64,000 nucleotides of DNA from an uncultured Phycisphaeraceae bacterium (GCA_964586145.1 CAZPHH010000009.1:5912-69911); one strand, 5' to 3'; shown: positions 4,273 to 16,087, counted from the stretch's first letter. Numbers and translations: made by a program. Notes: generated by a model not told the origin, from the sequence alone.

Positions 4273-4721
4273 CTACCGGTTCGAAGCACCGACCATCACG
4301 CGGCTCGGATACCACCCGGGGTGGATGCTGCGCCCAAACGCGAGGGACATTATACCCGCGACCCCGCGTGGCGCCCCGGGGTTTCGGTCCGCCGGCCCGC
4401 GCATCGTCCTATGCAGTCTGCGTGGGCATGGTGCCCGGGCACTCTACGCACTCCGGTCTTTGGCCGGCGCAGACCGGGGTCCGGACGAAAGGCCTTCCCG
4501 CCGTCGCACCCGCTGCAGGGCAGGGCGATCGTGGGGACCCTCGACGCCGGCGCTGCCCGTTGGCGTAAATGGCGCAACCACCGCCAGTTCCCCTTCGTAC
4601 CTGGCATTCCCCTTCGGGACTGGCATCGGTCCGCGGTGAAATTGCCCAGGGGGTGTGGATGCAACCGCCCGGGGTTGCTACATTACCCGCCCAGAGGTTT
4701 CTGGAAGGAGGAGCATGAACC

Positions 4722-6107
4722 GTGGGTACACCCTGTCTGGGCATTCTGGTGGGCGGCGGACCCGCCCCGGGCATCAACGGCGTCATCAGCGCCGCGGCGA
4801 TCGAGGCGATCAACAGCGGGATGCGGGTCATCGGCCTGTACGACGGCCTGCGCTGGCTGGCCGGCAAGGAGTTCGACGTTGCGCATCACACCATCGAGTT
4901 GACGATCCCCCTGGTGGCGCGGGTGCATTTCGACGGCGGATCGATCCTGCGAACCTCTCGAACCAGCCTTCTGGACGACAAGAAGCTCAAGACGTCCACG
5001 GTGGTGGCGGCGGACCCGGAGAAGGTCAAGCGGGTCATGGCCCGCCTGGAGCTCCTCGGCATCACGCACCTGCTGACGATCGGCGGTGACGACACCGCAC
5101 TCAGCGCCCGGATCACCGCGGAGGCATCGCGGGGCAAAATCCGGGTCGTCCACTGTCCCAAGACCATCGACAACGACCTTCCGTTGCCCGGCGACCTTCC
5201 CACGTTCGGATACAACACCGCCCGGCACCATGGAGCGATCCTCGTCAAGAACCTGATGCAGGATTCCAAGACGACGGACCGTTGGTACATCGTGGTGGCC
5301 ATGGGCCGCAACGCCGGCTTCCTGGCCCTGGGCATCGGAAAGTCCGCGGGCGCCACCCTCACCCTGATCCCGGAGGAGTTCCGCGACAAGGTGACCGTCG
5401 CGCAGGTGTGCGACGTTATCGAGGGCGCAATTCTCAAGCGGCGCGCGATGGGGCGACACGACGGCGTGGCCGTCCTTGCGGAGGGCCTGGCGTACCGATT
5501 CGGCGACCGGGTCGAACTCGAACGCATCCTGGGCTGTGAAGTCCCGGTGGACGCCGCCGGTCACCCGCGACTCGCGGAGTTCCCTCTCCAGGACGTCATC
5601 CGCAAAGAGCTGGTCAGGCGGTTTCGCGACCGCGGCGACAAGACCACGATTGTATCCGGCACTCTCGGCTACGAACTCCGCTGCGCCGAGCCGACCCCGT
5701 TCGACATGGCGTACTGCCGCGACCTCGGCCACGGGGCGATCCGCATGTTGCTGGATACCGAGGCGAACTATCCGCTGGGCGTGATGGTTACGCTCCAGGG
5801 CGGGCACCTCAAGCCGATGTTCTTCGAGGAGATGGTGGATCCGCAGACCAACCGGACGCGCGTCCGCCAGGTGGACATCTCCTCCGACTCCTACCGCGTC
5901 GCCCGGGCGTACATGCTCCGCCTGAACAAGAGGGACTTCGAATCGCCCGAATTCGTGCAGAAGATGGCCGGGCACGCGAAGCTCAGCGAGGCGGAATTCC
6001 GCAAGCGGTTCTTCCCCGTTGTGGACGGCACGATCTGCCTGGACCCGCCGGCGGAAGGACCCCAGCCGTTTCTGAATCTGCTTCGCAATGGCCAGACGGA
6101 ACCGTGA
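4722..6107 (+). CDS. pfp: 6-phosphofructokinase, probably pyrophosphate-dependent (PFP)
   Basis: GTG start 8 nt after GGAAGGAGGAG. PFK motifs GGGPAPGINGVI, TIGGDDT (Asp where ATP-PFKs have Gly, a PPi-type marker), PKTIDNDL, MGRNAGFLAL. Confidence 0.8.
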   Translation: MGTPCLGILVGGGPAPGINGVISAAAIEAINSGMRVIGLYDGLRWLAGKEFDVAHHTIELTIPLVARVHFDGGSILRTSRTSLLDDKKLKTSTVVAADPEKVKRVMARLELLGITHLLTIGGDDTALSARITAEASRGKIRVVHCPKTIDNDLPLPGDLPTFGYNTARHHGAILVKNLMQDSKTTDRWYIVVAMGRNAGFLALGIGKSAGATLTLIPEEFRDKVTVAQVCDVIEGAILKRRAMGRHDGVAVLAEGLAYRFGDRVELERILGCEVPVDAAGHPRLAEFPLQDVIRKELVRRFRDRGDKTTIVSGTLGYELRCAEPTPFDMAYCRDLGHGAIRMLLDTEANYPLGVMVTLQGGHLKPMFFEEMVDPQTNRTRVRQVDISSDSYRVARAYMLRLNKRDFESPEFVQKMAGHAKLSEAEFRKRFFPVVDGTICLDPPAEGPQPFLNLLRNGQTEP

Positions 6108-6189
6108 TGCCGCCGGGGTGACCCGGACGCTTCGCCGTTTCTCGACCTGGGCCCCGGTGCGCCGACCGCAGGTCGGGAATCGCAGCGCC

Positions 6190-7305
6190 TCATTCCTCCG
6201 GGATCGGCCGCGTACCCTGCACCGGCCCGACCACGGAGTGATACTTGAACTCGACGTATCCCTGTCGCTCGAACTTCGCGGCCAGGCGCCGCAGGGTATC
6301 GATCAGGTCGGTCAGCCTCTCCAGGGACACGCGCATGGCCTCGTACAGCCGGGCGTCCCGCAGGAGCAGGCCCAGGGTCCCCTCGCCCTCGGCCATCTGA
6401 ACGGCCACTCGGTTCAGGGTACTCGTTAGCTCCGCCGTGCCATCCAGCACGGGGCCCAGCCGGTTGATCTGTCCGCGTACGTCCTGCACCGCCAATTGGA
6501 GTTCGTCCGAGATCTGCCGGACATCCGTCTTGAGCGTGGCCGCGGTCTCCCGCAGGTCCGCGAAGGTCTGCTTGCCGTCCGCCGTCATGTCGCGGATGTT
6601 CTCCACGGACTGCTTCACACCCGCCTTGAATTCCGGATCGCCCATGATGTCGTTCCAGTGCCGTAGCGTCTCGTCGAACCGCTGCACCACCGTATGGAGA
6701 GTGGCGGTGATCCGCCGGGCGGAGGCCGCCGGATCGTCCACTTCCCTGATGGTGCGTTTTTCCAGCAGATCGTGCAGGTCGGCGGCCACAGGCCGGAGGT
6801 CCGCGGCGAGGTTCCCGATTTCCAGGCCGGTGCGCTCGAGCGTGGGCATGAGTGTCGGCGGGAGAATGTCCGCCAGCGGATTGCCCATCTCGCCTCGAAT
6901 GCCCGCGCCTTCCCGTGGGAGCATGACCAACTCTTTGTCTGTGGTGGGCACCGCCAGCTCGATCCGGGTCCGGCCAATGCCGATGGGTGAGGTCAGGATG
7001 ATGGCCCGGGTGCCCTTTGGGATTTCGTACTGGTTTCGGATCAGGGCTATGATCTTGACGCCCTCGTAGGGCTTCTTGGCATTCACGAATTCGGTGCGTC
7101 CCACCCGCCCGACCTCGACGCCGTTCATGTTGATGGGCGTGCCCTCCTGCACACCGGAAAGCTGGTTCACCCGAACGGAGAGTTCATATTCCGCCCCCCC
7201 CAGCCACGTCGGGTGCTCGCCGAACAGGACCATCAACGTGGCGGCGGTACCCAGGCCCGCCAGCATGAAGAACCCGACCAGCACATTCCGCCTGAACTCG
7301 CTCAT
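6190..7305 (-). CDS. MCE/MlaD-family substrate-binding protein of ABC transporter
   Basis: N-terminal TM helix (VLVGFFMLAGLGTAATLMVLF) followed by an MCE-like beta domain and a long helical C-terminus. ATGA overlap with the upstream ATPase gene. Confidence 0.8.
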   Translation of the reverse strand: MSEFRRNVLVGFFMLAGLGTAATLMVLFGEHPTWLGGAEYELSVRVNQLSGVQEGTPINMNGVEVGRVGRTEFVNAKKPYEGVKIIALIRNQYEIPKGTRAIILTSPIGIGRTRIELAVPTTDKELVMLPREGAGIRGEMGNPLADILPPTLMPTLERTGLEIGNLAADLRPVAADLHDLLEKRTIREVDDPAASARRITATLHTVVQRFDETLRHWNDIMGDPEFKAGVKQSVENIRDMTADGKQTFADLRETAATLKTDVRQISDELQLAVQDVRGQINRLGPVLDGTAELTSTLNRVAVQMAEGEGTLGLLLRDARLYEAMRVSLERLTDLIDTLRRLAAKFERQGYVEFKYHSVVGPVQGTRPIPEE

Positions 7306-8120
7306 GATCCGACTCCGTTTCGCAGGCTGCGCAGGTCCGCCGCAGACGCCCGCCCTTCCACGAACCGGCGGACCCGCTCATCCTTCGAGGCTGCCAGCGC
7401 ATCCGGCGTGCCGTCGAAGATGAAGCGCCCGTCGTGCAGCATGATGATCCGGTCCCCGACCTTGCGAGCACTGGCCATGTCGTGCGTCACGACGACGCCC
7501 GTCACGCCCATCTCCCGCTTGAGCTTGAGGATCAGCTCGTTGATCACGTCGGCCCGCACCGGATCTAATCCTGTTGTGGGCTCGTCGTATAGTACGACTT
7601 CCGGGTCCAGAGCGATGGCACGGGCCAGGGCCACGCGTTTCTTCTGCCCGCCCGACAACTCCGCCGGGCGCTTGCCCTGGATTCCGTCCAACCCCACCAT
7701 CCGCAGCTTCTCCGACACGATCCGCGACACGTCCGCCGGGGAGCGACGCGTATGCTCGATCACGGGAAAGGCGAGGTTCTCCGCCACGGTCAGCGAGTCA
7801 AACAGCGCCCCGAGTTGAAACAGAAAGCCGAACCGTTGTCGCAGTCGATCGAGCTGCCGGATGTTCATCCGGTCCACCCGGTCTCCCCGGAATCGCACCT
7901 CTCCGTGGTCGGGCCGCAGCAGGCCCACCATATGCTTGAGAATGACGCTCTTGCCCGCTCCGGACTCGCCGATCACGACCATGGTCTCGCCCGCCCGCAG
8001 GGAGAGGTCCACGCCTTGCAGCACGCGCTGGGCGCCGAACGCCTTATGCACGTTGGCGAATCGAATAACGGGCACGCCATCGGCGTCCCCCCCGGGACCC
8101 TGCGACACGGCAAAACTCAT
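7302..8120 (-). CDS. ABC transporter ATP-binding protein (MlaF-like)
   Basis: Walker A GESGAGKS, signature LSGGQKKRVALARA, Walker B VVLYDEPTTGLD. Confidence 0.9.
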   Translation of the reverse strand: MSFAVSQGPGGDADGVPVIRFANVHKAFGAQRVLQGVDLSLRAGETMVVIGESGAGKSVILKHMVGLLRPDHGEVRFRGDRVDRMNIRQLDRLRQRFGFLFQLGALFDSLTVAENLAFPVIEHTRRSPADVSRIVSEKLRMVGLDGIQGKRPAELSGGQKKRVALARAIALDPEVVLYDEPTTGLDPVRADVINELILKLKREMGVTGVVVTHDMASARKVGDRIIMLHDGRFIFDGTPDALAASKDERVRRFVEGRASAADLRSLRNGVGS

Positions 8121-11753: not shown

Positions 11754-12297
11754 TGAAACAGCCCCCGACCGCGGCGGCTTCTTCGACCACCGGGGTCAGG
11801 GGCTGATTGTGCGGTCCAGCCCCCTGATTTTCAAATTTGAGGAAGCTGCCGCGCGTCTCGCTCTTCCCGTCCCTCCGCGCGAGGGTGCTTTTGCCGTGTC
11901 GTCCCAATCATCAGCCCCTCGGACGGAAGCTGTCGTGTCCCTCCGTTCAGAGGAGCAGTCAATGGCGTTTCATCGCAAACCGGTCCGCTCTCGCCCCCAT
12001 CCCAGGCGGAGGCTTTCCAGACTCCACGTTGGTCCAACGCCGGGAACAAGGCTCCGGCCAAGGCGTTGGCTCCACAGACACGATCTCCCTTAAAAAAACC
12101 AGTCTTCCTCACGAAACACGTATGGTACTGACAAGGACGGTGACCGGAGCCTTGTCCAGCGTTTCGCAGAATCAGCGTGTGGTGACGAACGGAGAGCCGC
12201 CCTGCGTCGGCAACCGGAACGCAAGGGCACACGCCGCGCGACGTCCGGGACGCCACAAGTTCACTCTTCGTTCATCGGGCTGACGCTTGAGGAAAAT

Positions 12298-12348
12298 ACG
12301 GAATGACGAACAGTACGAATGACGGATTCAAACGGAATACACGCGTCC
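12298..12348. repeat. three imperfect ~17-bp tandem repeats (core ACGGAATGACG) in an AT-rich island
   Basis: ACGGAATGACGAACAGT / ACGAATGACGGATTCAA / ACGGAATACACGCGTCC, read directly. They lie in a 1.1-kb region without a credible ORF. Confidence 0.4.
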
Positions 12349-12838
12349 GCCCATGCACTTTCTATTGTCTGCCAACGTCTATTTCATACCCGATAACGCA
12401 AAAAAGTCAAGAGCGCAGCGCCCCGAAAGTGACAAATTGTTGTCGGCGCGTTGCATGTTCCATGCGATGATGCCTGTTCGGTGGCGTCGCCTGACGCGGC
12501 CGACCCCTCCGCAGTCCGATTCCTGAGCGACAAGGTCCCCTGGAAGCTGCCATCGCAGCTCGCTCTGACGCACGACCCCGCGTCTGAGAACGCGACCGAC
12601 CGTGACGCATCCCATCCCCGCATTTCCTCCGGTCTGAACCGATCCTTCGTAGAGGTTCGTGGACCCGCCGAACTGAACCCTGTCAGCGCCCACAAGCCCA
12701 GGACGTCGCTCACCCGTCGCCGCTTGTCGTCTCGGTGGAGCGTCGAGTGAGGTCAGAGCCCAGCGACCGCCGGCGGCCGACCAAGACTTGGCCGGACCGG
12801 GACGATCGCGGCCAGTCGGTTGGTGCCCGATTACGGTC

Positions 12839-12867
12839 TTGGTGACGGGGCACGGACATACTATACT
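12839..12867 (+). promoter_or_regulatory. candidate sigma70-type promoter for cdaA
   Basis: TTGGTG-17 nt-TATACT, about 70 nt upstream of the cdaA ATG. Confidence 0.3.
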
Positions 12868-12939
12868 CCTCCCGGAGGCGACGGAACGCAGGGGCGCCGT
12901 GTAACCACTTTCGGCAGCAATAGGGGCAGGGCCACCGCG

Positions 12940-13896
12940 ATGCCGGGTTGGCTGATCGCACAATTGACCTTCGCGGATCGGGTCGGGCGTTTCGGAGCCC
13001 GTCTGGCCGACATCGAGTTGTACGATCTTTTCCGGGTCGCCCTCGAGATGTTCCTCATCGGGATCGTCGTGTACTTCACGCTGCGATTCCTCCAGGGCAC
13101 TCGGGGGGCCCGACTGCTACGGGCCATCGGCCTGATCGTCGTCGTCAGCTTTCTGGTGGTCCGACTGGTGGCCGCAAAGCTTGAACTCGACCGCATCAGT
13201 TACGTGTATCCCTACTTCCTGGGCGCCGTGTTTCTCATCACGCTCATCGTATTCCAGACGGAGTTGCGCCGCGGCTTGCTGCTGATCGGGGCGAACTGGT
13301 GGTCGCGGAGCTGGGCGGAGGAGGCGGCCCGGGTCATCGAGCCGGTCGTCCAGGCCGCCGCGAGCCTCTCCAAGAAGAAGGTCGGCGCCCTGATTGCCGT
13401 AGAGCGGAGCGTGGGCATGGCCGCTGTGGCCGAGACCGGCGTGGCCCTGGACGCGGTGGTGAGCGCCGAGCTTCTCGGCTCGGTGTTCTGGCCCGGCTCC
13501 GTGCTGCACGACATGGGCGTGATTATCCGGGGCAATCGAATTGTGGCGGCCGGGTGCCAGTTTCCGCTGACCGATTCCGATGATGTCGACCGCTCGCTGG
13601 GCAGTCGCCACCGCGCCGCGGTGGGCATCAGCCACGAATCGGACGCGCTGGTGGTGGTGGTCAGCGAAGAGACCGGCACCATCTCGGTGGCCGAGCATGG
13701 TCGCCTGCGCCGCTCGCTGACCCCCGACACGCTCCGCCAGATCCTCACCGAGGGCCTGACGGGCGGGGTGGGGCGCGGAGCCGGCGCGAGCTTCCTGCGT
13801 TCAGAGAAGGCCGCCGTGCCGCGTCCGTCCGTCGCTCGGGAAGAAAGCTCGGATGCGTCCGGGACCACGCTGTCCAAGGCGAAGACGGGTACCTGA
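12940..13896 (+). CDS. cdaA: diadenylate cyclase CdaA (c-di-AMP synthase)
   Basis: Three N-terminal TM helices and a DAC domain with GALIAVER...DMGVIIRGNRI...GSRHRAA...SEETGTISVA. The start is set at MPGWLIAQ. Confidence 0.9.
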   Translation: MPGWLIAQLTFADRVGRFGARLADIELYDLFRVALEMFLIGIVVYFTLRFLQGTRGARLLRAIGLIVVVSFLVVRLVAAKLELDRISYVYPYFLGAVFLITLIVFQTELRRGLLLIGANWWSRSWAEEAARVIEPVVQAAASLSKKKVGALIAVERSVGMAAVAETGVALDAVVSAELLGSVFWPGSVLHDMGVIIRGNRIVAAGCQFPLTDSDDVDRSLGSRHRAAVGISHESDALVVVVSEETGTISVAEHGRLRRSLTPDTLRQILTEGLTGGVGRGAGASFLRSEKAAVPRPSVAREESSDASGTTLSKAKTGT

Positions 13897-13897
13897 C

Positions 13898-14938
13898 ATG
13901 GCCCAGATCAAGCTCATCGCGATGACCATCGGACTGACCGTGCTGATCTGGGTGTTTGCCGACCAGCTCCTGCGGGAATCCGATGATCTGCTCATTCACG
14001 TTCGCCTCGCGCCCTCCGGCCCAACTGGAATGTCGGTCCGGACGCCGGACGATCACACTCCGTCTTTCCGGGTGCGAGTCAGCGGACCGCGGCGTATCAT
14101 CGCCAAGAAGGTGGTCGGCGGCTCTGTTGGTGTGGACCTTCCCGTCACGGAGCGCAAGACCGGCCGGTACACTCTGACCATGCTCGAGGAGCTCCGGAAG
14201 CTGCCCGGCCCGTTCGACGATCTGTCCATCGAATCCGTCAGCCCGGAAACGCTCGACGTTCTGGTGGACAACACCGTCACAGTCGAAATGGACGTTCGCC
14301 TCCGCGAAACGGAGGCGCTCGACTTCGAGATCGACCCCACCGTGGAGCCGACGAGGGTTCGCGTGGCGATTTCGGAATTGGCCCTGCACGGGCTGCCGCC
14401 GGACATCGCCGGCATCCCCCCGGACCAGCGCTACGTCGCCCTGAACGTCACCCGCCACCTCGCGAAGTTCCCGGCGGGCACGCTGTTCTCCCGCGACGTC
14501 ATGCTCGAACACCGCGTGGCCGGGGTCAATGTTCGCATCGAACCGCCTGAAGTCCGCCTCGTTGCGCAACTGGCGGAGCGACGCAAGGAAACCACGATCC
14601 CCGCGGTCCCCATCAACTTTCAAGGGAGCGCGACGGTATTAAACCGTTACTTTATTGACCAGCGCGACCGTTTCACCCTGCTGACGCAGCCGATTACGCT
14701 CCGCGGTCCGGATGACGTGCTGGATCGGATCACCTCCGGGCAGATCAAGGTTTTCGGGATCATCACCCTGACGACGCCGAATGCGGACGAGGTGGGCAAG
14801 TTCCAGGAGGCGATGCCGCGTTTCAACCTGCCGCCGGGGGTAGAGTTGGTGGGGTCACCCGATCCGGTCGAGTTCCGTCTGTTACCCCGACCCTCGCCCG
14901 AGAACGGCAACGAGTCCCCCCAGGCGTCGCTGAACTAG
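13898..14938 (+). CDS. CdaR-like regulator candidate (YbbR-type, by position)
   Basis: The ATG lies 1 nt after the cdaA stop. It has an N-terminal TM helix (IKLIAMTIGLTVLIWVFA) followed by repetitive beta-rich segments. The assignment rests mainly on cdaA-cdaR synteny. Confidence 0.6.
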   Translation: MAQIKLIAMTIGLTVLIWVFADQLLRESDDLLIHVRLAPSGPTGMSVRTPDDHTPSFRVRVSGPRRIIAKKVVGGSVGVDLPVTERKTGRYTLTMLEELRKLPGPFDDLSIESVSPETLDVLVDNTVTVEMDVRLRETEALDFEIDPTVEPTRVRVAISELALHGLPPDIAGIPPDQRYVALNVTRHLAKFPAGTLFSRDVMLEHRVAGVNVRIEPPEVRLVAQLAERRKETTIPAVPINFQGSATVLNRYFIDQRDRFTLLTQPITLRGPDDVLDRITSGQIKVFGIITLTTPNADEVGKFQEAMPRFNLPPGVELVGSPDPVEFRLLPRPSPENGNESPQASLN

Positions 14939-14963
14939 GGGTGAGATTTTCCGGGCCGGCCAC

Positions 14964-14991
14964 TTGACACGGGATGGCGCCGGGCTATTCT
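14964..14991 (+). promoter_or_regulatory. promoter of the stand-alone 5S rRNA gene
   Basis: Perfect -35 TTGACA (14964-14969), 16-nt spacer, -10 TATTCT (14986-14991). The predicted TSS coincides with the 5' end of the 5S helix I. Confidence 0.55.
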
Positions 14992-14995
14992 ACCC

Positions 14996-15104
14996 TGTGC
15001 GGTGACAATGCGTGCAGGGAAACACCCGTCCCCATTCCGAACACGGTAGTGAAGCCTGTACGGCCGAGGGTAGTCGAAAGGCGAGATTAGGTGATTGCCG
15101 CATT
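14996..15104 (+). rRNA. rrf: 5S ribosomal RNA, short (~109 nt) form
   Basis: CCCAUUCCGAACACGGUAGUGAAGC and GCCGAGGGUAGU match universal 5S loop B/C and loop E regions. Helix I pairs 14997-15005 with 15095-15103. Helix IV is shortened. Confidence 0.85.
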
Positions 15105-15110
15105 ATTTTG

Positions 15111-15139
15111 AAAGCCCGCTTCGGCGGGCTTTTCTTTTG
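15111..15139 (+). terminator. Rho-independent terminator after 5S rRNA
   Basis: AAAGCCCGC-TTCG-GCGGGCTTT stem-loop followed by TCTTTTG. Confidence 0.75.
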
Positions 15140-15227
15140 TCACCATCGGATCGGTCTGTATCCGGCGCGGCTCGGGCGTCCGCGGTGACGAGCCGGACCG
15201 TGCCGCTCTTTCTGAGGAGATCCAGGC

Positions 15228-15317
15228 GTGGGAATCGTCGCAACGGCATTGGTTCTGATCGGGATTCTTCTGGCGTCGTTCGGGGCCATATTCACCCCAC
15301 TGGTGCTGGCCACGTGA
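15228..15317 (+). CDS. candidate 29-aa hydrophobic mini-protein
   Basis: GTG preceded by GAGGAG (8-nt spacing). Translation MGIVATALVLIGILLASFGAIFTPLVLAT is a single TM helix. It is below the ORF-track length cutoff and is speculative. Confidence 0.25.
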   Translation: MGIVATALVLIGILLASFGAIFTPLVLAT

Positions 15318-15388: not shown

Positions 15389-16087
15389 ATGAGCGCTCGT
15401 CTGGTGATCGTGACCGGGGGCGGCCGGGGCATCGGCCGGGCCACGTGTCGGCGCTTCGCAGCGGCCGGCGACCAGGTGGTGGCCGTTGCCCGAACGGCCG
15501 CCGAAATCGAGGAAACTCGCGATCAGATACAGGCGGACGGCGGCGTCTGCGCAGCCTGCTCTGCGGACCTGGGCCGCTGTGAGGAGGTCGAGCGGCTCAT
15601 CGACTCCGTCCATCGCGAGTTCGGCCGGGTAGACGTGCTGGTGAACAATGCGGGCATGGTCGTCAAGGGACCGGCGGCGACGATGGATCCTGCCGCCTTC
15701 GAGGCCATGGTGGCCGTGAACATCTCGGCGATCTTCCATGCCACGCGCCGCGTCTGGCCCATCATGGAAGCCCAGGGGGGCGGCACGATCATCAATGTGT
15801 CGTCCATGGCCGCGTTTGACCCGTTCCCGGGGCTGGGCACGTACGGGGCGACCAAGGCGTGGGTGAACACGTTCACGCTGGGCCTGGCCGGCGAGGGTCG
15901 CAAGGCGGGCATCCGGGTGTTCGGCGTGGCCCCCGGCTCGGTGGAGACCAAGATGCTTCGCAGTATCTTCCCCGACCTGCCGGCGCATCGCGTGCTTTCA
16001 CCGGATCAGCTCGCCGATACGATCTTCGCCGTGGCCCGGCCCGAGTTCGCGCATGCCACCGGGCAGGTCATCGCGGTTCGCAGTTGA
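15389..16087 (+). CDS. short-chain dehydrogenase/reductase (SDR)
   Basis: TGGGRGIG cofactor motif, NNAG, and the S...YxxxK pattern (YGATKAW). Confidence 0.9.
   Translation: MSARLVIVTGGGRGIGRATCRRFAAAGDQVVAVARTAAEIEETRDQIQADGGVCAACSADLGRCEEVERLIDSVHREFGRVDVLVNNAGMVVKGPAATMDPAAFEAMVAVNISAIFHATRRVWPIMEAQGGGTIINVSSMAAFDPFPGLGTYGATKAWVNTFTLGLAGEGRKAGIRVFGVAPGSVETKMLRSIFPDLPAHRVLSPDQLADTIFAVARPEFAHATGQVIAVRS

Follow-up and report, generated by a model that had tools for sequence, protein, structure and literature searches.

In bacteria, the 5S rRNA gene is ordinarily co-transcribed with the 23S rRNA gene, which ensures a 1:1 supply of the two RNAs. In the rrnB operon of E. coli, the 3' part of the 9S pre-5S RNA is made up of the 5S, an AU-rich linker and the T1 terminator hairpin, and is matured by RNase E cleavage and then by exonucleolytic trimming. 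Separate 16S, 23S and 5S genes, each with its own promoter, have been described in Leptospira, Thermoplasma and Nanoarchaeum (rrnDB paper, PMC2686494). Among the planctomycetes, the 16S and 23S genes are unlinked in Phycisphaeraceae and MSBL9 (Brewer et al., 10.1101/705046), and the unlinking described for the phylum is one in which the 16S gene lies away from a 23S-5S pair (PMC13514998; 10.1101/705046, Figure 1 legend). Ordinary 23S-5S pairs are also found in Tepidisphaerales, another order of the Phycisphaerae (PMC13514998). The 5S rRNA of planctomycetes includes an established short type of 109–111 nt, below the minimum length usual in bacteria and defined by a truncated helix IV and by a residue missing in helix II/loop B (PMC3906078). 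Our literature search found no prior description of a stand-alone 5S gene in Phycisphaerae.

Here, we describe such a gene in a 64-kb stretch of DNA from an uncultured Phycisphaeraceae bacterium, analysed as a whole and called the window below. The gene had been picked out by an earlier reading of the sequence alone (hereafter the sequence-only reading), as a 5S rRNA gene that carries a promoter and a terminator of its own and is unlinked to 23S and 16S. Our analysis makes it likely that this is an autonomous and monocistronic gene, probably the sole 5S gene, and that it forms a self-contained unit rather than the last gene of an rrn operon.

The 5S rRNA gene lies at 14998–15103 on the plus strand. 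A search of the 64-kb window with Rfam, the check proposed by the sequence-only reading, returned a strong RF00001 match of 66.1 bits (E 1.1e-11), compared with a gathering threshold of 38 bits, that runs over model positions 1–120 and is not truncated. The identification as 5S rRNA thus stood, while the proposed length of ~109 nt became 106 nt by Rfam boundaries. In the alignment to the model, helix IV occupies 4 nt in the window 5S versus 15 in RF00001, forming 3 bp capped by a GAAA tetraloop, and 1 nt is deleted after GCCUGU, in the helix II/loop B region. The same reduced helix, of 3–4 bp capped by GNRA or UNCG-type tetraloops, is seen in the homologues (74 distinct 5S sequences). With a length well under ~118 nt and a shortened helix IV, the gene belongs to the short planctomycete type, as had been suspected from its size and truncated helix (PMC3906078).

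Conservation of the fold was assessed by covariation analysis, chosen because the minimum free energy of the unit gave a z-score of -1.2 versus shuffles, which is not significant; MFE stability was accordingly dropped as support, being uninformative rather than contrary. The 74 distinct homologous 5S sequences were aligned to the canonical five-helix structure with its 33 pairs. In this alignment, 95.8% of cells are paired, versus 88.3% for column shuffles and 27–48% for slid partners. Compensatory changes on both sides occur in 12 of the 33 pairs, compensatory cells number 163 where 42 are expected, and the covariation score of 0.221 (versus 0.079) was reached by none of 500 shuffles. Little or no variation is seen, over the whole alignment, in the helix III/loop C segment with its CCGAAC motif and in the loop E-region sequences on either side of helix IV. 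All helices are intact in the window copy, and positions 14998–15141 fold as a three-way 5S junction, which the MFE structure reproduces, followed by an independent hairpin. The window sequence is therefore no decayed copy with disrupted helices, the outcome that would have spoken against the sequence-only reading; it is a bona fide 5S rRNA, with purifying and compensatory selection acting on its structure.

No other rRNA gene accompanies it. The 5S is the sole Rfam gathering-level match in the 64-kb window, no tRNA was found there, and blastn with a 4.3-kb 23S query detected no similarity in the window, in agreement with the earlier statement that the 15 kb to its left and the 49 kb to its right are free of 23S and 16S. 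Between 11600 and 15400, a permissive Rfam scan returned sub-threshold chance matches that overlap the 5S and its terminator only (rsmX, 21.7 bits; istR, 20.9 bits). Upstream, on the plus strand, lie a DAC-domain gene (diadenylate cyclase, cdaA-like; 12940–13896; 318 aa; PF02457, E 5.1e-38) and a called gene of 346 aa in the cdaR position (13898–14938), and downstream of the 5S the gene calls place an SDR gene at 15389–16087. Of the two neighbours named by the sequence-only reading, the SDR gene was recovered, while the "cdaR-like" gene has no domain support: its product has no Pfam match at E<=1e-3, the best being YbbR at E 0.5 and 11.2 bits, versus a cutoff of 22.3. We have therefore rejected the name CdaR for this gene, and below "CdaR-like" denotes purely a gene position, the gene and the DAC-domain gene before it being referred to as the DAC pair. 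The stop codon of the 346-aa gene falls 25 nt before the -35 hexamer of the 5S, a gap into which a separate terminator would not fit.

The locus is not particular to one assembly. Seventeen metagenome contigs (the longest of 73–76 kb), drawn from JGI, ENA and Logan assemblies, code for exactly this SDR protein and have identical gene order, and the locus is identically assembled in at least 10 independent assemblies; given this uniform gene order, it is reproducibly assembled. A scan of metagenomes with a species-level 59-nt 5S pattern found one contig, MTKY01048107.1 (L097), with the same CdaR-like/5S/SDR context. Homologues of the 346-aa protein, at 40–93% identity, are found in MAGs labelled Phycisphaerae, Phycisphaerales or Planctomycetota. 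The planctomycete attribution made from the sequence alone agrees with these homologues and with the genomes that match the 5S, whose labels (labels as distinct from phylogenomic placement) are Phycisphaerae, Phycisphaerales or Planctomycetota.

A further observation concerns the ~1.1 kb upstream of the DAC gene, ~11760–12930, which has no called gene on the source contigs and where the permissive Rfam scan was empty. The window holds a 194-aa minus-strand ORF at 12379–12963, and in a relative (L012, 7991–8563) a 190-aa minus-strand ORF is called at the position equivalent to this gene-free stretch.

Immediately upstream of the 5S, the window contains a -35 hexamer, TTGACA, at 14964–14969 and a -10 hexamer, TATTCT, at 14986–14991, both on the plus strand, separated by a 16-nt spacer and ending 6 nt before the first base of the 5S. 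The sequence-only reading had described exactly this arrangement, placed for a start at the 5' end of the 5S, and it is borne out. In a promoter scan of the window, TTGACA-16-TATTCT scores 10 of 12 against the promoter consensus, and TTGACA-N16-TATNNT occurs once on both strands of the 64 kb, versus 0.02 occurrences expected from shuffles. Farther upstream, 14–20 nt from the -35, an A/T tract (AGATTTT, 14944–14950, plus strand) resembles an UP element and may function as one.

The conservation of these motifs was measured over 72 stand-alone units with enough upstream sequence, i.e. 71 loci from relatives plus the window. TTGAC is invariant and at a fixed position in all 72; an A follows it in 40 units and a G in another 28, and in 60 it has a C before it. 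The spacer to the -10 is 16 nt in 64 of the units. The -10 has the consensus TAtnaT, with its first T in 65 units, its A in 68 and its final T in 68, and it lies 6 nt from the nominal 5S start in 51 (range 4–11), while G occupies the second 5S position in 57. At 14–20 nt upstream of the -35, A+T content is 0.60–0.81, versus ~0.4 nearby. When the window and its relatives are aligned, the -35, the T-A-T...T of the -10 and a terminator stem CCCGC-TTCG-GCGGG are kept and the other flanks have diverged. At the sequence level, then, a sigma-70-type promoter motif precedes the 5S and is conserved in 72/72 units, and we predict that it is active.

Downstream, helix I is directly followed by a U-rich tract, TTATTTT (15103–15109, plus strand), which is a candidate for a first termination point and/or for the zone where the 3' end is matured by cleavage or trimming. 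Next to it stands an intrinsic-terminator-like hairpin, GAAAGCCCGC-TTCG-GCGGGCTTTT followed by CTTTTG (15110–15141, plus strand), corresponding to the GC hairpin and T-tract reported by the sequence-only reading. Its stem, at 15110–15133, has 10 bp, 6 of them GC pairs, and a 4-nt loop, and is followed by CTTTTCTTTTG; the hairpin is present in the MFE and centroid folds of 14998–15141 alike. Both elements recur in the relatives. Of 71 related loci, 70 have a hairpin with dG <= -8 kcal/mol followed by a T-run in the ~50 nt past the 5S. Four or more consecutive T are found no farther than 16 nt beyond helix I in 69 of 72 units, and at six consecutive positions between helix I and the hairpin T is present in 56–72 of 72 sequences. 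The 5S thus has a hairpin and T-run of its own that would serve as terminator, with probable termination points in the two T-rich segments. The promoter and terminator motifs thus go beyond a match to a consensus: they stand at fixed positions in 72/72 and 70/71 stand-alone units, respectively, of different species, where the sequence around them and even the adjacent genes vary. This supports the notion of a 5S unit that has both signals to itself.

Two kinds of short sequence were seen past the terminator. The motif TGCGC starts 4–7 nt past the stem in 49 of 71 stand-alone loci (e.g. TTTTCATGCGC; example loci are L018, L020, L022, L038, L044 and L047, at 5–11 nt after the stem); of random 65-nt windows drawn at these loci, 9% contain it anywhere. 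It travels with the 5S unit across gene contexts and is lacking in the sub-clade of the window (15134–15150). In the window, a small hydrophobic ORF of 29 aa, MGIVATALVLIGILLASFGAIFTPLVLAT, lies just past the terminator at 15228–15317 on the plus strand, with a GTG start and GGAG 8 nt upstream. It has equivalents at L012 11332–11421, L016 11389–11478 and L017 3768–3857, and peptides of 27–37 aa with the motif ..LG.F..iF..L.fatg follow the 5S in L014/L091, L039, L042, L044, L055 and L071. These similar peptides occur both in the DAC context and in other 5S contexts, and a crude screen for hydrophobic ORFs after the 5S flagged 11 of 66 loci; the ORF may encode a conserved small membrane protein.

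How the gene is arranged in related genomes was approached in two ways. Six homologues of the 346-aa protein (40–87% identity) were examined in their genomic context. At each of these loci a 5S lies directly after the DAC pair, scoring 62.7–73.9 bits against RF00001, and the downstream gene varies; the six include CP070691.1, a complete chromosome of 3.79 Mb. Over all relatives scored, RF00001 matches range from 62.7 to 75.5 bits. When a degenerate 5S pattern, which a 5S differing at the specified positions escapes, was searched for in one genome per GTDB species, it matched once in each of 79 contigs, all from different assemblies. Among them are four complete chromosomes (CP070691.1, CP070827.1, CP070744.1 and OY776568.1), in each of which the sole pattern match is a stand-alone 5S after the DAC pair. 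No second 5S and no 23S-linked copy matching the pattern was found in the 79 genomes, and coexistence with an operon-linked 5S, which would mark an orphan copy, was not seen in any of them. The comparison with other 5S copies advocated by the sequence-only reading could thus be made among relatives, four of them complete, where the pattern revealed no 23S-linked second copy with which the stand-alone gene might be compared.

In 72 of the 79 genomes, the 5S has no 23S nearby, and no 23S similarity was detected in the sequence examined at these 72 loci; Rfam LSU matches were likewise absent from 12 stand-alone blocks. By tblastn synteny, the 5S follows immediately on the DAC/CdaR-like pair in 42 of the 72, and the order DAC/CdaR-like/5S is kept down to 29–40% protein identity. 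The distance from the stop codon to the -35 has a median of 60 nt (43 loci) and is usually 19–340 nt. The remaining stand-alone genes form several small synteny groups beside unrelated genes, among them genes for signal peptidase I, an aminotransferase, a homogentisate-dioxygenase-like protein, a fatty-acid hydroxylase and an RNA methyltransferase/pseudouridine-synthase fusion. Judged from these sequences, the stand-alone 5S is a conserved trait of a large Phycisphaerae group and not an oddity of one genome. The sequence-only reading had called an autonomous 5S unusual, which holds for bacteria in general; in this lineage, with 72 stand-alone loci, it is the rule and by no means peculiar to the genome of the window. 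Since Tepidisphaerales have 23S-5S pairs, the trait is not class-wide.

Some individual loci of this set showed further features. At L021 (CBDTZI010000188.1), ~2.1 kb separate the CdaR-like gene from the 5S promoter (oriented coordinates ~4564–6690), which suggests an insertion between the two. A c-di-GMP-I riboswitch (59.8 bits) lies at L020 7755–7834 on the minus strand, ~1.8 kb from the 5S in CP070827.1, and an Acido-Lenti-1 sRNA match of 38.7 bits, just above threshold, lies at L060 6960–7006 on the minus strand.

The other seven pattern matches (L024, L025, L030, L033, L075, L092 and L094) come from AT-rich loci with the 23S directly upstream of the 5S, and are labelled Uhrbacteria, Gammaproteobacteria or unclassified. 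Their 5S is also of the short type, with a 4-bp helix IV. It has no promoter, and complementary flanks extend helix I and are followed by a T-run. Rfam LSU matches were obtained in L025 and L033, and in L025 the 23S spans 3,740 nt versus 2,925 model positions, so that it probably contains an insertion. Because these 23S-linked genes were recovered, the pattern is not blind to linked copies. We considered the seven loci as a planctomycete outgroup that would represent the ancestral state and dropped this use of them in view of their labels, their AT-richness and the 3.7-kb 23S with its insertion.

We propose the following course of expression for the unit. A strong sigma-70-type promoter, comprising the A/T tract, cTTGACA, the 16-nt spacer and TATTCT, would drive the 5S, with a start that coincides with the first base pair of helix I or lies within ~1 nt of it; the conserved G at 14999 and positions 14997/14998 are the likeliest candidates. 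If it starts at helix I, there would be no 5' leader to remove. Termination would take place either in the U-tract behind helix I or, 7 nt further on, at the GC hairpin and its U-run, and a 3' tail of small length would be lost through cleavage within the U-rich linker and/or trimming by a 3' exonuclease. The mRNA of the DAC pair probably reads through the 5S and stops at the 5S terminator, because the upstream pair has no terminator of its own. As the 5S would not be co-transcribed with the 23S, its supply would have to be matched through the strength and regulation of its promoter. A bolder version of this scheme is at present rather doubtful, namely that in much of the Phycisphaerae the gene is a minimal 5S that dispenses with nearly all processing: the promoter would be set at helix I, helix I and the U-tract would form the primary terminator, backed up by the downstream hairpin, and the primary transcript would be about the mature 5S. 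Its supply would then be governed by a dedicated promoter of the UP-element type and be fully uncoupled from that of 23S and, together with the reported unlinking of 16S and 23S, all three rRNA genes would be dispersed.

The position of the gene, so close behind the DAC pair, invites a different account of where the RNA comes from, in which most of the 5S is released from the DAC/CdaR-like operon transcript, whose 3' end it would form, and its promoter has little or no activity. The gap between stop codon and -35 (25 nt in the window and a median of 60 nt over the 43 loci, with no terminator between) is what such an origin would lead one to expect, and so is the gene order shared by 42 of 72 genomes down to 29–40% protein identity. 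What weighs against it is that in ~30 genomes the 5S unit sits beside unrelated genes and retains the complete promoter motif with its distance to the 5S unchanged, and that TTGAC, the spacer and the -10 are far better conserved than the adjacent non-coding sequence; a housekeeping signalling operon would, moreover, be an unlikely source of RNA in rRNA-level amounts. We consider this origin improbable as the main one. Transcription of the 5S from its own promoter is the account that we prefer, although the 25-nt gap is a point against its being the whole story, as some 5S could stem from read-through mRNA.

The remaining alternatives question the role of the gene rather than its transcription. 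Extra 5S genes are common in bacteria (rrnDB paper, PMC2686494), and Tepidisphaerales retain 23S-5S pairs (PMC13514998), so one might suppose that the window 5S is a surplus orphan and that the ribosomal 5S is encoded beside the 23S elsewhere in the genome. Yet none of the 79 genomes, the four complete chromosomes included, has two matches to a pattern that is able to recover 5S genes linked to a 23S, as it did in other lineages; purifying and compensatory selection on the structure is clear; and the predicted promoter, with its UP-like tract, appears to be of rRNA-like strength. A surplus copy thus seems to us somewhat less probable still than an origin from the DAC operon. That the gene is a 5S-derived pseudogene or a non-ribosomal regulatory RNA, e.g. 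a decoy for 5S-binding ribosomal proteins, strikes us as scarcely credible. Nothing specific argues for it, apart from a shortened helix IV and a length of 106 nt that are atypical for bacteria, and this short form is a known planctomycete 5S type (PMC3906078). The near-invariant helix III/loop C and loop E-region sequences and the covariation of all helices point the other way, as does the fact that in the complete genomes it is apparently the sole 5S detected by the pattern search. An autonomous ribosomal 5S gene, transcribed as its own unit, remains the reading that best accommodates these observations.

Placed beside the described systems, the Phycisphaerae 5S resembles that of Leptospira, Thermoplasma and Nanoarchaeum in lying apart from the 23S with promoter-like and terminator-like signals of its own (a likeness at the sequence level), and differs in its host lineage, which is free-living Phycisphaerae (Planctomycetota) represented by at least 72 species-level genomes. 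To our knowledge, a start at helix I, a U-tract abutting helix I and a recurrent position after a DAC pair are not features of those three systems. With Pirellula/Rhodopirellula and Tepidisphaerales it shares the phylum, the tendency of rrn operons to break up and the short 5S type, but in these the 5S stays with the 23S, whereas the window-type 5S stands on its own. The succession of helix I, a brief single-stranded linker rich in A/U and then a terminator hairpin recalls the 3' part of the E. coli 9S RNA; unlike the latter, the Phycisphaerae unit has no upstream 23S and would have no 5' leader, and its linker consists almost wholly of U and adjoins helix I directly. Like surplus or orphan bacterial 5S genes, the window 5S is not adjacent to a 23S, but those are additions to operon-linked copies, and here each of 79 genomes gave a single match to the pattern. 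What is new is therefore a further lineage, broad and free-living, with an autonomous 5S, dispersed rRNA genes as such being already known. Distinctive of it are the uniformity of the cassette, the predicted start at helix I, a U-tract that immediately follows this helix and the repeated occurrence of the unit behind the DAC pair.

The finding also has practical sides. A MAG requires a 5S gene to be ranked as high-quality. In JAJVHX010000016.1 (L076), positions 7531–7636 match RF00001 at 75.2 bits and are accompanied by the conserved promoter and terminator, yet the published table for this Phycisphaerae MAG (JAJVHX; PCS_19R/Bin_19R) lists zero 5S genes (PMC9202391). A short stand-alone 5S that scores 75 bits is thus missed by some annotation pipelines, and such misses affect "high-quality MAG" calls. 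Because it is in a single-copy context, the 5S gene assembles well, and the locus is therefore usable as a synteny marker for the clade. The conserved promoter-RNA-terminator cassette would further be a ready-made expression module for planctomycete genetics.

For the biology of the group, the main implication is that a broad, environmentally common and free-living clade appears to have abandoned the co-transcription of 5S and 23S rRNA, and therefore would have to keep their stoichiometry through regulation at the level of promoters. Engineering work on 5S autonomy reportedly exists, and the natural case of the Phycisphaerae would be complementary to it. The 5S of Phycisphaerae may in this way offer a natural test case for how the supply of 5S rRNA is coordinated with the assembly of the 50S subunit.
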